The notes beneath the pieces are model-generated. The model was not told the origin of the DNA. It made no database searches and saw nothing but the letters and a program-made list of their open reading frames with translations. From a virus, in IMG/VR virus record IMGVR_UViG_3300028549_000940, positions 1 to 60,797 of that record: a stretch of 60,797 bases of DNA; one strand, given 5' to 3'. A program made the translations under genes and the position numbers. Of the stretch, positions 2,800-52,812 are shown piece after piece (the first letter of the stretch is position 1; each line of letters opens with the position of its first letter).

Positions 2800-3015
2800 A
2801 TGAAAAAACTAATCGTAATCATCTTTGTATTCCTATCAGGATCTTGTTTTGCTCAAACCGACTACAAGAAGGAGTTCAAGACAGCAGATAGTTTATTCAC
2901 TAAAATGACTGACTCGCTAAGGAGTAACCGAACCATCTTTGTGACGAAGGTAAAGAAGGATACGGTTGCAGTAAAGCCGAAAACTAAAGTTAAACCGATC
3001 ACTAAAGTTAAGTAG
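2800..3015 (+). CDS. Small secreted or lipoprotein-like lysine-rich protein (71 aa)
   Basis: N-terminal signal-like MKKLIVIIFVFLSGSCFAQ. C-terminus has VKPKTKVKPITKVK repeats. Confidence 0.5.
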   Translation: MKKLIVIIFVFLSGSCFAQTDYKKEFKTADSLFTKMTDSLRSNRTIFVTKVKKDTVAVKPKTKVKPITKVK

Positions 3016-48387: not shown

Positions 48388-48720
48388 TCAAGGAAGTTTT
48401 GATGCATTACACTTCCGACATAGCGTTGTTAAATTGCTTAGTTTGTTTAATCCTTCAAAATCCAAGCGATCTACAACATACTGGTAAACAGATACAACAT
48501 GATCTACTTGTAAGTATTCTGTAGATGAGCATTTAGTGCATTTATGCCCATCTCTACTAAAAATATAATTTCTAACATCATTCCTTCTGATGAATGATGA
48601 TGATGAATTTCTAGCAGCTTGATACCTTACCGAAAAATCACAATTATTCATGTTGTCCATAGACCTATTCATTGGTTTCCATTTAGGAAATCCTAAACCG
48701 GATTTTATTTGACGTGCCAT
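48388..48720 (-). CDS. HNH endonuclease (110 aa)
   Basis: DGHKCTKCSS..LQVDHVVSV..NLTTLCRKCNASK is an HNH motif with zinc-binding cysteines. Confidence 0.8.
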   Translation of the reverse strand: MARQIKSGLGFPKWKPMNRSMDNMNNCDFSVRYQAARNSSSSFIRRNDVRNYIFSRDGHKCTKCSSTEYLQVDHVVSVYQYVVDRLDFEGLNKLSNLTTLCRKCNASKLP

Positions 48721-48723
48721 AAC

Positions 48724-49128
48724 CTATAACGGTAAATCGTTAGCCATTTCAGGTTCCGCGTCGAAATATGGCTCATTTGGCTTTTCTTCCTTAGCCTCTT
48801 TTTTCGATCCACAGAAAGCAAATGTGTTCAGCTTCGTTTCGGTAACATACCGTTTTATGCCCTCTTTATCTTCGTATGAGCGAGTTTTTACCTCGCCGAA
48901 GATATTTAGCTCAGCGCCCTTTTTTACGTATTTCTCGATGGTCTCTGCGGTAGATCCCCACACTACAATATTGTGCCAATCGGTTGATTCTACTTTTACA
49001 CCATCTTTTGAAGTGTATGATGCGTTGGTGGCGAACGGGAATGATACTACGGTGCTGTTTTCGGTGTGCCTTACTTCGGGGTCTTTTCCGACAAACCCGT
49101 GCAAAATGTGCAGGTTGTTTGAGTTCAT
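48724..49128 (-). CDS. ssb: Single-stranded DNA-binding protein (134 aa)
   Basis: OB-fold pattern GFVGKDPEVRHT..WHNIVVWG..GAELNIFGEVKTRSYEDKEG and an acidic tail ending in NDLPL. Confidence 0.85.
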   Translation of the reverse strand: MNSNNLHILHGFVGKDPEVRHTENSTVVSFPFATNASYTSKDGVKVESTDWHNIVVWGSTAETIEKYVKKGAELNIFGEVKTRSYEDKEGIKRYVTETKLNTFAFCGSKKEAKEEKPNEPYFDAEPEMANDLPL

Positions 49129-49604: not shown

Positions 49605-49865
49605 TTAGTTAAAATACTTGGTTAGGTAAGCCTCAATATCAACCTTCTCGTGCCGGTTGGAGTTAACTACATTTACCTTCCACAGGAGCGGGTAAACATT
49701 TAGCTTTCGGTAGTTCGCTTTTGAAAGCCGGAAGTGGTAGGCGGTGATGGCCTCGATGTCCACCGATAGCTTTGCAGTAAGCGCGAGTAGCAGCTGCGTG
49801 TTGGCCTCTAGCTTTGTCTTATTCCTAAGCGCTCTGGCCTCGTTGTTTTGAGTAATGGTTGTCAT
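49605..49865 (-). CDS. Hypothetical protein (86 aa)
   Basis: ATGA coupling with the helicase gene end. Confidence 0.45.
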   Translation of the reverse strand: MTTITQNNEARALRNKTKLEANTQLLLALTAKLSVDIEAITAYHFRLSKANYRKLNVYPLLWKVNVVNSNRHEKVDIEAYLTKYFN

Positions 49866-52420
49866 AGGTTATATTTAGTTTTAAAAAGGTTCATTACTCC
49901 GTGAACTATTTCTGCCTCTATTTCTTCGTCCGATCCATAGACTGTGTTGGCTACCTCTCGCTTCTCTTCAATAATTCGGTAAACCCAGTTATCGATGGTT
50001 CCTTTCCCTATAAAGTAAGGACAGGTAACAGCGTTTTTTTGACCTATCCGGTGGGCGCGATCCTCGGCCTGATCCATAATTGCCGGGTGCCAACCCATTT
50101 CAATAAAGGCTACCGTTGACGAAGCTGTCAGGGTAATACCTACCCCGGCGGCTGCAATGGAGCAGAAAATAAGCCGCGTTTTATCATCTTTTTGGAACTT
50201 ATCTACGTTGTCCTGTCGATCTGCTATTGAGTCTTTTCCGGTGACGGAAACGCTACCGGGGAACCGGTGCTTTAATTCTCCCAACACCTCTCTTAGGTGT
50301 CCGAATACTATTAGCTTCTCACCGTTGGCTAAAGTGTCTTTAATGAACTCTGTAACGGCCTCGATCTTACCCCTAGCTGAGATGTTCTTTAGTATCCCGA
50401 TGCGAACCATTGCCTCGCTGCGCATCTTTCTTTTAATGTCGTGCTCTGATTCGTTCTTATACTCCCTTAAGTATTCAGCCAAGTCTCTTTCGGCGGTGTC
50501 ATACTCCTCTTGGGTGGTGATGTCGCAAAGGATTACTTGTCTGGTTTTTTCGGGTAGGTCGGTAACCTCCGATTTCTCCCTACGGTAGTAGCAGGTTGAA
50601 AAAAGTAAGTCTCTAAGCTCCTCCAGCTTCGATTCGTCCTTAGTATCGTAGTAGTCGCTGAAGTGTGCGTAGCCTCCGAACTTGTCTATCTGGTTGATGA
50701 TTGCCAACTGCGAGGCTAGGTCTCTTGGAGTATTAATTACCGGTGTTCCAGTGAGTAAAATTTGATACTCCTTTCCGTAGGCTATTCCGCGAACGAACTT
50801 GCTTTGCTGCGCTGAAGGATCCTTGCAATTAGATACCAGTATTCCGTCGGCAAAGTAGTTGTGCGTTGTTTCTATTTCGAGGTCATATACTGGCGTATTA
50901 TTCCAATAACCATTGGCAAGTTCTCTAGAATTTCCTTGTTCGTAAACCTCACAACTCTCCACCCTAACGAGTTCAATACCTCTGTTTTCAATTTGTCTAG
51001 TGCCTTTACTTTTGTTGTGCCGTGAGACATTCCGTCTACTTCTATCGAAAGAAAAATATCCGGTATTGCAATGTCTGACTTGTAGCAACCTGGAATGTGT
51101 TGGTATAAGTGTTTTACAGAACTCGTTGCTATTGGATACTCTAGCGCACTTTCCGGCAAGTTTAGCTCTCTCCAAAGTGACAGTTGAGGTATGGTAAGTT
51201 GTCCATTCCCTCCTCTGTTTTTGAATGCACGACCTTTTAATTTTGCTGATACTTTCTCTATAATACCTGGCATCTGCATTGGATTGTTTAATTTCATCCT
51301 GTCTGAATGCATCTTCTTTAGCACAGGGTCTAGCATTTGCTTTGTAGTAGAAACACGTAATTTTTCTATTTTTTGCTCTGATCTGCTGGACAATATTATT
51401 TCCGGTTGTCTTACTCTCCATTTTGCAGAACAACTTTGACTGCAAAAACGAATCTTTGCAGATTTCTTTCCGTGAAATTTGTGCGTAAATGACTCCCCGC
51501 AATAAGCACACTTCTTCTCTACTAAAATAACCGGATGTAAGTCTTTGCGTTTCTGTATTACATCTGGACGAGAATTTACCGAAGTTGAAGCACAACTTCT
51601 TGAACAGAATATCGCTGTCGTTTTCCCCGCTTTCTTTGTTGAGAATGTCTTTCCGCAGTAAATACAAATACGATCCACTTTTGATTTCTTGTATTTCTTC
51701 GAGCCGTCCGGCATTAGTATATACTTTGTGTCCTTCTGTGGCGTAGAGCTCTCCTCTTGTATGCTTGATTCTAAATAATCTTCGTTGTCCAACTTCATTT
51801 GTCCATATATTTAAAATGCGTTTATATACTATTGTGTTTGTATCAATATCAAACGACGTAACTAAAATGTCTTTAATGTTGTTTTTTGCAATGTCACCAA
51901 TGCTAATCACTCCTTTATTTGTAGATATCATGGTGTTATGAGGAAAGCATCTGTGGCCCTCGTCGATTACTACTGCCTTAAATAGATTTATCGTTGATTT
52001 AAACCGAACATCTGCCAACCTCCACCCTTTTTTGGTTGGCATTTCAGCCACAAAATACTTCTTCAGCGACTCGTAGTTCACAATAAACACGTTGGCAATA
52101 CCGGCCTGAAAGAATAGGTGCCAGGTGTTCACCATTGAGTCGGATAAGATCATTGGTTTTAAATCGGTCCACATGGTAATCTCACGCTCCCAATTCAGCT
52201 TCAAAGAGGAGGGGCAAACCACTAAGCATGGGATAGCGTTGGCTCCTTTGATGGCCGCAATGGCCTGTAGGGTCTTACCAAGACCCATTTGGTCGCCAAC
52301 AATAACTCTCTTATTCTTTAGGATATATGCTGTTCCCGGCTTTTGGTAGGAGAACATTTCTCCTTTCAGTGGGATAGTAATTTCTAGCTCTGGTAGTGGG
52401 TAGTTGTTCTGGAAGTTCAT
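49862..52420 (-). CDS. SNF2-family helicase precursor containing an intein (852 aa; about 478 aa after splicing)
   Basis: Motif I GDQMGLGKT, motif II VVIDEGHR, then an intein, then CKDPSAQQSKF. C-terminal motifs V/VI AAGVGITLT and QAEDRAHRIGQ. Confidence 0.9.
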   Translation of the reverse strand: MNFQNNYPLPELEITIPLKGEMFSYQKPGTAYILKNKRVIVGDQMGLGKTLQAIAAIKGANAIPCLVVCPSSLKLNWEREITMWTDLKPMILSDSMVNTWHLFFQAGIANVFIVNYESLKKYFVAEMPTKKGWRLADVRFKSTINLFKAVVIDEGHRCFPHNTMISTNKGVISIGDIAKNNIKDILVTSFDIDTNTIVYKRILNIWTNEVGQRRLFRIKHTRGELYATEGHKVYTNAGRLEEIQEIKSGSYLYLLRKDILNKESGENDSDILFKKLCFNFGKFSSRCNTETQRLTSGYFSREEVCLLRGVIYAQISRKEICKDSFLQSKLFCKMESKTTGNNIVQQIRAKNRKITCFYYKANARPCAKEDAFRQDEIKQSNADARYYRESISKIKRSCIQKQRREWTTYHTSTVTLERAKLAGKCARVSNSNEFCKTLIPTHSRLLQVRHCNTGYFSFDRSRRNVSRHNKSKGTRQIENRGIELVRVESCEVYEQGNSRELANGYWNNTPVYDLEIETTHNYFADGILVSNCKDPSAQQSKFVRGIAYGKEYQILLTGTPVINTPRDLASQLAIINQIDKFGGYAHFSDYYDTKDESKLEELRDLLFSTCYYRREKSEVTDLPEKTRQVILCDITTQEEYDTAERDLAEYLREYKNESEHDIKRKMRSEAMVRIGILKNISARGKIEAVTEFIKDTLANGEKLIVFGHLREVLGELKHRFPGSVSVTGKDSIADRQDNVDKFQKDDKTRLIFCSIAAAGVGITLTASSTVAFIEMGWHPAIMDQAEDRAHRIGQKNAVTCPYFIGKGTIDNWVYRIIEEKREVANTVYGSDEEIEAEIVHGVMNLFKTKYNL
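50828..51949 (-). mobile_element. Intein (374 codons) inserted after helicase motif II
   Basis: Verified codons: Cys1 TGC at 51949-51947, terminal Asn AAT at 50830-50828, and +1 Cys TGC at 50827-50825. Blocks CFPHNTMISTNKGVISIGDI, LYATEGHKVYT and VYDLEIETTHNYFADGILVSN. Confidence 0.85.
50872..51798 (-). CDS. Nested +1-frame endonuclease gene inside the intein: zinc-ribbon repeats plus a DUF559/Vsr-like PD-(D/E)XK domain (308 aa)
   Basis: ATG at 51798 verified. CIYCGKTF..FCSRSC and CAYCGESF..FCSQSC repeats. C-terminal YKSDIAIPDIFLSIEVDGMSHG..LGWRVVRFTNKEI. The frame offset from the helicase start is 622 nt. Confidence 0.75.
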   Translation of the reverse strand: MKLDNEDYLESSIQEESSTPQKDTKYILMPDGSKKYKKSKVDRICIYCGKTFSTKKAGKTTAIFCSRSCASTSVNSRPDVIQKRKDLHPVILVEKKCAYCGESFTHKFHGKKSAKIRFCSQSCSAKWRVRQPEIILSSRSEQKIEKLRVSTTKQMLDPVLKKMHSDRMKLNNPMQMPGIIEKVSAKLKGRAFKNRGGNGQLTIPQLSLWRELNLPESALEYPIATSSVKHLYQHIPGCYKSDIAIPDIFLSIEVDGMSHGTTKVKALDKLKTEVLNSLGWRVVRFTNKEILENLPMVIGIIRQYMTSK

Positions 52421-52812
52421 GCCGCTTTTGCTTTCTTGAGTGATTTTACTTTGTTTTGGTAGTCATTTATTAGCAGCTGCCCTTCGAAGTCCGACAGCTT
52501 GCTGGTTTGGTGACGCATTACGTCAAGCTCTTGAATTACATTTTCGCCATACTTCTTAACCAACCCTCGATGGTATCCGATCATGTTTCCCTCGTCGAAT
52601 CGGTTACATGCCCGGCACTGGCCGTTGCAGTTCTTTTCGTGCCATCGCGTGGATAGGTGTTTTCTGTTAACGTAGTGGCCGTTGTCGACCTGTTTCCAGT
52701 GGTGAATACCCCCGCAGGATATACACCTTACAAACCCGTTAGCGTCTGAGTCCCGAAGCCTTACATACTCAGAAAATACCTTATCCAGCTTTGCTACGAT
52801 GGTCTTGTTCAT
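52417..52812 (-). CDS. ninG: NinG-like recombination protein (131 aa)
   Basis: FSEYVRLRDSDANGFVRCISCG..DNGHYVNRKHLSTRWHEKNCNGQCRACN matches the lambda NinG family pattern. Confidence 0.65.
   Translation of the reverse strand: MNKTIVAKLDKVFSEYVRLRDSDANGFVRCISCGGIHHWKQVDNGHYVNRKHLSTRWHEKNCNGQCRACNRFDEGNMIGYHRGLVKKYGENVIQELDVMRHQTSKLSDFEGQLLINDYQNKVKSLKKAKAA

Follow-up and report, generated by a model that had tools for sequence, protein, structure and literature searches.

How does an intein carry a homing endonuclease when its own reading frame encodes none? The question is raised by an SNF2-family helicase gene in the IMG/VR virus record IMGVR_UViG_3300028549_000940, all 60,797 nucleotides (nt) of which were analysed and are referred to here as the window. 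A sequence-only reading of this DNA had proposed that the helicase is interrupted by a splicing domain like that of a mini-intein, that a separate nuclease gene is overprinted on the intein in the +1 frame of the same strand, and that the helicase frame is nevertheless kept open; codon shuffles, patterns of substitution and recurrence in other genomes now support this picture. On the evidence set out below, the locus very probably holds a mobile element, made up of an intein and a homing endonuclease, that lies in motif II (DEGHR^CKDP) of the SNF2 helicase of a Bacteroidota-type phage and encodes two functions in two frames.

Among Pfam families, the helicase open reading frame (ORF) of 852 amino acids (aa) matches SNF2-rel_dom (E=1.4e-27), Helicase_C and Intein_splicing (aa 173-531). 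An SNF2-related N-lobe, a Helicase_C domain and a motif II of the DExH type (DEGHR) are all present, as membership of the SNF2 family implies, and the nearest phage homologues are Bacteroides phage helicases. The intein opens with C158, directly after DEGHR, and ends in THNYFADGILVSN, the next residues being Cys-Lys-Asp-Pro (C532 after LVSN); it therefore has a first-residue nucleophile of the Cys/Ser class and, at the start of the C-extein, a residue of the Cys/Ser/Thr class, as do more than 60 related loci. Block B is represented by T71-E-G-H74, and the terminal Asn follows blocks F and G in a C-terminus that reads VYDLEIETTHNYFADGILVSN. When the intein is excised in silico, the remaining 478 aa (852 - 374) align from end to end with the intein-less homologues P0020, P0023 and P0024 at 83-93% identity, and these alleles have Val where the C-extein of the window has its first Cys.

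The nested gene begins with an ATG 622 nt from the helicase start codon (622 mod 3 = 1) and thus lies in the +1 frame, as the sequence-only reading had stated for this 308-aa ORF. Its ATG is upstream of block B and its stop codon falls at intein residue 360, within block F, so that the nested gene does overlap both blocks as claimed. The product is arranged as two zinc-ribbon modules, a helical region and a C-terminal nuclease domain. The two CxYCGxxF..FCSxSC repeats that had been noticed are present in the translation and are modelled as beta-hairpins, and the zinc-ribbon part matches PHROG families that comprise DNA-binding modules of phage homing endonucleases. The DUF559/Vsr-type signature suggested for the C-terminus is borne out by a Pfam match to DUF559 at aa 228-303 (E=2.9e-10, 40.4 bits against a cut-off of 20.6), and a profile of the family matches the DUF559 structure 3hrl (E=4e-13) and the catalytic domain of I-Bth0305I, 3r3p (E=8e-4). 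The residues E253, D255, H259 and D268 are invariant in a 17-sequence family alignment. An AlphaFold2 model of the whole ORF has a mean predicted local distance difference test score (pLDDT) of 78.9, with values of 82-94 in the nuclease domain, and its best Foldseek matches in the PDB are 3r3p (the top match, with a template-modelling (TM) score of 0.68-0.70) and 3hrl, with a probability of 1.0 and target TM scores of 0.65-0.70; the E-values are weak (8e-3) because the query was the whole 308-aa model. The invariant EDxHD residues, the profile matches and the modelled fold therefore identify the nested ORF, as far as prediction goes, as an EDxHD (Vsr-like PD-(D/E)xK, DUF559) homing endonuclease related to I-Bth0305I.

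Over the 927 nt of the overlap both the helicase frame and the +1 frame are free of stop codons, as had been reported from the sequence, against 31 stops in the third frame. To evaluate this, the synonymous codons of the nested ORF were permuted with its protein and codon usage kept (n=4000). After shuffling, the helicase frame held 17.4 stops on average and was stop-free in 0/4000 sequences, on which ground a chance open frame is rejected; the third frame, with 31 stops where the shuffles predict 30.1, behaves like unselected sequence. The same outcome was obtained in 14 other loci. A stop can arise in the helicase frame only where a T-ending nuclease codon precedes one that begins with AA, AG or GA, and T-ending codons are found at none of the 96 junctions at risk, versus 67/212 elsewhere. 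Seven free-standing homologues of the nuclease (L013, L110, L112-L114, L121 and L122), which served as negative controls, have 2-31 stops in the corresponding frame.

Since indels are a priori the commonest source of an apparent change of frame, and the window is a single assembly, one could suppose that two compensating 1-nt errors of sequencing or assembly have shifted a nuclease domain that is truly in frame. This is barely conceivable. Assemblies made independently from other samples have the same frames at 95-98% identity (P0019/L181 and P0001/L014), as do the genomes of the isolated phages CP-T1, phi673, MR14 and the Nahant Vibrio phages and about 115 further loci (about 130 independent loci in all); moreover, the nested ORF has an ATG and a stop of its own, and a stop 4 codons before the ATG closes its frame. 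The shuffles, the independent assemblies and the free-standing controls therefore exclude both chance and sequencing error.

Which of the two frames is under selection can be judged from the way in which close relatives differ. In five close pairs, the substitutions at nuclease codon positions 1/2/3 number 3/0/32, 5/1/35, 4/3/20, 19/22/49 and 55/47/113, and most differences within close pairs are non-synonymous when read in the helicase frame (30/35, 36/41 and 24/27). Conservation was also computed in blocks of 15 codons over nine SNF2-type loci. Across codons 46-300 the nuclease frame is the best conserved, and the helicase frame does not exceed the non-coding third frame in conservation; in codons 16-30, which also encode intein block B, the order is reversed, the intein frame exceeding a poorly conserved nuclease N-terminus. 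The last ~50 codons of the N-terminal splicing segment double as this part of the nuclease. The constraint therefore shifts along the DNA from splicing domain to nuclease and back to splicing domain. These patterns show purifying selection on the alternative frame and relaxation of the host frame over the overlap, so that within it the nuclease frame is, by all appearances, the selected one; the codon choices likewise show the helicase frame to be kept open, evidently by selection acting through synonymous choices in the nuclease frame.

What the helicase frame encodes between the two splicing segments is a stretch of about 220 aa (helicase residues 260-479) in which, as had been noted, no endonuclease motif can be seen. 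It is modelled at pLDDT 24-37, between splicing segments (158-259 and 480-531) that are modelled as beta structure, and no Pfam family is confined to it, the only match spanning it being Intein_splicing, which bridges both splicing blocks. By the same two measures there is no folded in-frame nuclease domain in the host frame, and an in-frame domain as the location of the nuclease is rejected, the linker having no family of its own and the nuclease sitting in the +1 frame. On sequence and model, the linker is best described as a passive read-through of the nuclease gene with no confident fold. That it is itself functional, for instance as a regulatory or disordered intein domain, so that both frames would encode functional protein throughout, might be argued from its being always open and from a few short motifs that recur in it (such as LFxKL and LQxR). 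We consider this improbable, as the stretch is conserved to the same degree as the non-coding third frame, just as would be expected if it passively hitch-hiked on the nuclease frame, and the mostly non-synonymous differences between close pairs, the low pLDDT and the lack of any Pfam family specific to it point the same way.

The arrangement is not peculiar to the window. As a megablast search of GenBank phages with the helicase gene and a single-sequence scan of viral contigs with the 308-aa ORF each gave zero matches, protein-level and profile scans were needed. A tblastn search with the 308-aa protein found matches in 45 GenBank phage records, 40 of them inside helicase genes (37 annotated as helicase, P-loop NTPase or "coil containing protein", and 3 being the equivalent gene under the name "hypothetical protein"), in four Vibrio phage lineages, Corynebacterium phage phi673 and Pseudomonas phage MR14. 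In each of the eight GenBank loci inspected (L001-L008: MG592463, JQ177061, OZ196825, MG592563, MG324353, MT104474, MW824411 and OZ196571), the homologous ORF is complete, lies in the +1 frame of the annotated gene and is unannotated, and the host frame is stop-free. The hosts in these eight phages are DExH/ResIII helicases, not SNF2 proteins, with the intein between DE and CHH, and the intein blocks are homologous to those of the window. We found no public record that annotates both genes; the GenBank phage records name the helicase alone, one of them as "coil containing protein". On short or GC-rich contigs, metagenome gene callers called the nuclease ORF and missed or truncated the host gene, leaving for example a 1199-aa helicase uncalled in L012.

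A profile scan of IMG/VR yielded at least 348 confirmed relatives, the best 80 of which were examined in detail. In 79 of these 80 the host frame stays open over the entire nuclease gene, in ORFs of 690 to more than 2300 aa, and in none is the third frame open; the nuclease ORF is intact in all 80, the stops in L030 and L053 lying upstream of their ATGs. Among the bacterial and archaeal genomes of GTDB, which gave 249 matches, the same arrangement is found in 35/41 full-length matches, the other 6/41 being free-standing. The survey of homologues proposed with the original observation thus finds both frames open in the great majority of loci. All metagenomic relatives at 46-98% identity to the nuclease of the window have the +1 arrangement, and those at 46-57% all occupy the same SNF2 site, DE(A/S)HR^C...N^CKD, with the host frame open; the overlap is kept across nuclease divergence down to ~28% identity. 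The sampled hosts are SNF2 helicases, ResIII/DEAD helicases, helicase-N6-methylase fusions and clamp-loader AAA+ proteins, and insertions occur at three adjacent registers of Walker-B/motif II (DE^, DExH^ and DExHx^), for which counts are approximate because the regular-expression junction caller failed or mis-placed ~20/80 loci. We propose tentatively, with somewhat less than even confidence, that +1-overprinted intein/EDxHD elements form a large, old and undescribed lineage, spread over phages of many bacterial phyla, for which overprinting is the normal, stable state, as it is in ~95% of the best-matching full-length members examined. If so, selection would favour expressing a dimeric, multi-module nuclease apart from the intein polypeptide.

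The exception among the 80 is L054 (IMGVR_UViG_3300006033_000040), a helicase-methylase fusion of at least 2200 aa with the same intein and +1 nuclease. It has one in-frame host stop at locus positions 3003-3005, just past the N-terminal splicing part (AEAC*EGMRAMPQ), with Met codons after it; this could be a sequencing error, or a one-step conversion of a contiguous overprinted intein into a "fractured gene" with a split intein. A split intein or fractured gene was also considered for the window and rejected, the host frame there being uninterrupted and an in-frame stop being found, among the relatives, only in L054. As a single nonsense mutation in the linker gives such a fractured gene of the kind described by Dassa and colleagues, the lineage could be a reservoir of natural split inteins. 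In another locus, L015 (ENA ERZ650235 NODE_27482), the N-terminal intein part is replaced over positions 1-200 by AT-rich sequence with stops in the intein frame; homology starts only at RKICNIKHNEG, and the locus has an intact nuclease ORF. It may represent a truncated copy or a chimera of the assembly.

Whether the element of the window has been mobile can be examined by allele comparison, since its closest helicases include both an intein-plus form (P0019, encoded by L181) and intein-less forms (P0020, P0023 and P0024). Compared with the window at the protein level, P0019 is 93% identical in its exteins and 98% in its intein; the exteins of the three intein-less proteins are 93, 87 and 83% identical, and their site reads DEGHR-V-KDP. 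At the DNA level, the inteins of the window and L181 are 98.8% identical (13 differences in 1122 nt), the N-exteins 88.5%, the C-exteins 82.7% and the flanking genes 73-80%. The extein of intein-less L182, the allele nearest to L181, is 93.9% identical in nucleotides to that of L181, and each is only ~85% identical to the window. In the 60 nt across the insertion site, by contrast, the window and L181 are 100% identical and L181 and L182 88%. At the junction the window and L181 read GACGAGGGCCACAGA|TGC and L182 reads GATGAGGGCCATAGG|GTT; the sequences of empty sites are GATGAGGGCCATAGG|GTTAAGGATCC in the L182/L099 region and, in L182, ATCGATGAGGGCCATAGG|GTTAAGGATCCTAAAGC. This pattern shows that the intein has evidently moved recently by horizontal transfer, with co-conversion of flanking extein sequence. 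Co-conversion is what homing predicts, and the signature points, if indirectly, to a working overprinted nuclease.

Identity toward the junction rises gradually on the N-extein side (0.78, 0.86, 0.87, 0.93) and on the C-extein side falls within ~50 nt; this asymmetry suggests a longer upstream co-conversion tract and possibly a cleavage site offset in that direction. One further empty site differs from the others: in P0100, an 899-aa SNF2 helicase that also bears a LAGLIDADG intein in motif VI, the motif-II site reads DESHR-C-KDS, with a Cys as at the +1 position of intein-bearing alleles where other empty alleles have Val. This Cys could be the footprint of a precise intein loss, or a pre-adapted site.

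Homing-cycle theory expects a nuclease to decay once its element is fixed, and inactive nuclease domains are frequent in inteins. The nested ORF might accordingly be decaying or domesticated and no longer an active homing nuclease, with the intein inherited vertically and amounting to a mini-intein with a long spacer. We judge this very improbable. Substitutions are concentrated at third positions of nuclease codons, the catalytic residues are invariant and all 80 IMG/VR copies are intact; in addition, the intein is 98.8% identical, with a co-conversion tract, between helicases that are themselves only ~85% identical, and intein-plus and intein-minus alleles coexist at 94% nucleotide identity of their exteins.

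As to how the nuclease is made, in the window the nested ATG comes just 4 codons after the +1 frame opens, and 69% of 67 distinct loci have an ATG no more than 12 codons from the frame opening, versus 35% expected. Translation of the nuclease by internal initiation at its own ATG in the helicase mRNA is plausible. In a different scheme, programmed +1 ribosomal frameshifting from the helicase frame would make it as a fusion of N-extein, intein(N) and nuclease; in favour of this, both ORFs lie on one strand with a +1 offset, the ATG has no preceding Shine-Dalgarno site, frameshifting is common in phages, and the poorly conserved N-terminus of the nuclease leaves its true start uncertain. Such frameshifting is nonetheless highly improbable, given the +1-frame stop just 4 codons upstream of the ATG in the window, the enrichment across loci of ATGs near the frame opening, the existence of free-standing and split-intein relatives of the nuclease that are independently initiated genes (PMC2677866) and the cost of a fusion that would use up the helicase precursor.

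We infer the following mechanism. In the helicase frame, the Hedgehog/intein (HINT) domain would consist of a ~100-aa N-terminal and a ~50-aa C-terminal piece, joined by ~220 aa of unstructured read-through; the precursor would be translated straight through and the HINT domain would excise the intein to leave a 478-aa helicase, the linker being tolerated as a flexible loop. In the +1 frame, a complete EDxHD nuclease of the free-standing type would be made from its own ATG within the helicase mRNA and would cut intein-less helicase alleles near the insertion site during co-infection; as the break is repaired from the intein-bearing copy, the whole element would spread (homing). Selection on the helicase would keep its frame stop-free at near-zero cost to the nuclease, by excluding T-ending codons before codons that start with AA, AG or GA. 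The element may have originated by invasion of an intein by a free-standing nuclease gene, and the existence of free-standing relatives fits such an origin. A reason for the separate frame may be that a multi-module dimeric enzyme fails as an insert tethered at both ends within a HINT domain; separate expression would also allow a potentially toxic nuclease to be dosed independently of the helicase.

Several observations weigh against this account of a splicing-competent, mobile, two-frame element. The penultimate residue of the intein is Ser (VSN|C) rather than the common His, although both SN and HN occur across the family. The match of the window protein to PF14890 (Intein_splicing) has E=2.5e-7 and 31.1 bits and does not reach the cut-off of 35.8 bits; homologous inteins of the same architecture reach 36-77 bits, over the cut-off. 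No Shine-Dalgarno site was found before the nested ATG, an absence that is uninformative because the ORFs of this genome are generally without one (a Shine-Dalgarno-like motif is present in 4/53 window ORFs). The Bacteroidetes-type -7 promoter motif TAnnTTTG does not occur on the minus strand from 52620 to 50872, the nested ORF included, sigma-70 promoters not having been searched since promoters of other kinds are used in the likely host group. Finally, the signature of transfer shows that the element moved, and not which nuclease broke the DNA.

The coordinates of the locus are collected in Table 1.

Table 1. Parts of the intein-bearing helicase gene and of the nested nuclease gene, in positions of the window
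Feature	Positions	Strand	Basis
SNF2-family helicase precursor ORF (N-extein + intein + C-extein), 852 aa	49862..52420	-	ORF list, Pfam, colinear intein-less alleles
N-extein, helicase aa 1-157, ending at motif II (VIDEGHR)	51950..52420	-	Junction comparison
Intein, helicase aa 158-531, 374 aa: C1 ... T71xxH74 ... VYDLEIETTHNYFADGILVSN, then Cys+1	50828..51949	-	Intein_splicing and homologous junctions in >60 other loci
N-terminal splicing (HINT) segment, helicase aa 158-259	51644..51949	-	Modelled beta strands, pLDDT ~58-76 per 10-residue block
Intein block B (T-E-G-H), helicase aa 228-231, within the two-frame overlap	51728..51739	-	Residue inspection and block-wise conservation
Helicase-frame linker, aa 260-479, the nuclease gene read in the -1 frame	50984..51643	-	pLDDT 24-37; conservation like third frame
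C-terminal splicing segment, helicase aa 480-531, blocks F and G	50828..50983	-	Contains nuclease stop codon within block F
C-extein, helicase aa 532-852 and stop, beginning CKDPSAQQSKF	49862..50827	-	Comparison with intein-less alleles
Nested +1-frame gene, 308 aa, predicted EDxHD/Vsr-like (DUF559) homing endonuclease	50872..51798	-	ORF list, Pfam, profile, AlphaFold2 model, selection
Nested ATG, built from intein codons AAT-GAA (N51-E52)	51796..51798	-	4 codons past +1 frame opening
First zinc-ribbon module (CIYCGKTF...FCSRSCAS), approx. aa 45-73	51580..51666	-	Translation, alignment, model; PHROG
Second zinc-ribbon module (CAYCGESF...FCSQSCSA), approx. aa 97-126	51421..51510	-	Translation, invariant C119 and C123, model
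Predicted nuclease catalytic domain, aa 228-303; E253, D255, H259, D268 = EDxHD motif	50890..51117	-	DUF559, 3hrl, 3r3p, Foldseek

The helicase gene belongs to a replication module of RecT, DUF3799, NinG, helicase and SSB genes, the synteny of which is kept in L181, L182, L099 and L100. The NinG-family gene (52417..52812, minus strand; Pfam NinG E=1.4e-21) and the helicase ORF share the 4 nt ATGA, which include the helicase start codon. The SSB gene (48724..49128) has as its immediate downstream neighbour a free-standing gene for a 110-aa HNH endonuclease (48388..48720, minus strand; Pfam HNH E=1.1e-7); in the syntenic region of L181 and L182 the SSB gene is followed by a gene of 239-268 aa and the small HNH gene is absent. 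It looks, from this gene content, like a second, independent mobile nuclease polymorphism. The Bacteroides phage homologues of the helicase, together with the few ORFs that have a Shine-Dalgarno-like motif, make the phage look Bacteroidota-associated.

The arrangement matters in several ways. Surveys that seek in-frame nuclease domains would class such elements as mini-inteins and deem them immobile. A same-strand overlap of 0.9 kb that costs only the choice of synonymous sites is a clean natural case for the persistence of overlapping genes, and the elements speak concretely for the model of intein origin known as "splicing domain first, nuclease invades later", besides offering a one-mutation route to natural split inteins. 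They also raise the question of how an internal +1 ORF is translated from a busy mRNA without Shine-Dalgarno-led initiation, and whether low, uncoupled expression is an advantage. As potential tools, they provide many HINT domains that would tolerate a 220-aa unstructured insert, and a large set of EDxHD nucleases whose insertion sites in helicase motif II are known. What is added here is that the arrangement is the rule in a large nuclease lineage, that the selection on it can be measured, and that the copy in the window carries a fresh signature of homing.

Nucleases encoded out of frame in inteins have a history. A 1998 report by Gorbalenya (NAR 26:1741), known here through later papers that cite it, is said to have described non-canonical inteins with nucleases in alternative ORFs. 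In actinobacteriophages, inteins have been reported with antisense LAGLIDADG, antisense VSR-like/EDxHD and frame-3 endonuclease VII-like nucleases, in DNA polymerase, minor capsid, terminase and thymidylate synthase genes, cases that the authors term rare (bioRxiv 10.1101/2025.01.02.630785); in cyanobacteria, a dnaX intein holds a LAGLIDADG gene in the +2 frame under similar frame-specific selection (bioRxiv 10.64898/2026.09.14.751524). The sequence-only reading, which knew of no intein that hosts its nuclease in an alternative frame, is therefore outdated on this point. The general idea has already been reported; for the same-strand +1 EDxHD gene within contiguous Walker-B/motif-II inteins, or for its abundance, we found no description in the literature consulted. 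The published systems resemble that of the window in having a contiguous intein, a host-frame stretch without a fold between the splicing blocks, and another frame that encodes a well-folded nuclease under purifying selection, and their authors likewise propose secondary invasion by a free-standing nuclease gene. They differ in that the nuclease of the window is an EDxHD enzyme, on the same strand and in the +1 frame, in that the insertion sites here lie in the Walker-B/motif II region of SNF2 or DExH helicases, of helicase-methylase fusions and of clamp loaders, and in frequency, the published cases being termed rare and the present type occurring in hundreds of loci.

The fractured genes described by Dassa et al. 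(2009, PMC2677866), in which a free-standing Vsr-like endonuclease gene lies between the halves of a split intein, are similar in nuclease superfamily (Vsr-like/EDxHD), in their location in phage DNA-metabolism genes and in the same-strand placement of the nuclease gene between the N and C splicing parts; as in the window, the nuclease gene there has been reported to overlap the intein part downstream of it, though by no more than 6-69 bp. In those genes, however, the host frame is closed, two polypeptides are made and spliced in trans, and a non-coding spacer of 27-51 nt precedes the nuclease gene, whereas the host frame of the window is open across 927 nt, so that splicing would be in cis. 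L054, which is one in-frame stop away from the contiguous state, suggests that contiguous and fractured states are interconvertible.

I-Bth0305I (Taylor et al. 2011, PMC3239194; PDB 3R3P), the enzyme that serves as prototype of the EDxHD family of homing endonucleases, comes from a group I intron in recA and was found experimentally to be a stable homodimer that contacts ~60 bp. It shares with the nuclease of the window the catalytic fold and the E-D-x-H-D residues, the order of N-terminal DNA-binding modules followed by a C-terminal nuclease, and a phage-borne location. The catalytic domains are only ~20% identical, the N-terminal modules of I-Bth0305I are described differently from the zinc ribbons of the window, and its dimerisation and footprint have been measured, whereas the nuclease of the window is known from its sequence and a model.

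In the ShiLan-type insertions of phage methylases (Genes 2025, PMC11855218), an out-of-frame HNH gene likewise leaves the host frame stop-free over the insert, whose real product is a same-strand homing nuclease in another frame. There, a splicing domain is undetectable and the insert apparently stays in the host protein; in the window the overlap is flanked by clear intein blocks.

Canonical inteins with in-frame LAGLIDADG or HNH domains, finally, are also homing elements in conserved motifs of replication proteins, and their HINT domain is interrupted at the same topological position by nuclease-coding DNA. They occur in relatives of the helicase of the window, in Walker A and motif VI (P0032, P0050 and P0100). 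Two of these related SNF2 helicases, P0032 (1286 aa) and P0050 (893 aa), have a canonical in-frame LAGLIDADG intein in Walker A (GLGK^); P0032 bears in addition a motif II intein of the overprinted type, and in P0050 motif II is empty. In a canonical intein the nuclease is part of the excised polypeptide and is made 1:1 with the host protein, whereas in the overprinted arrangement it would be a separate product, the level of which could be adjusted independently.

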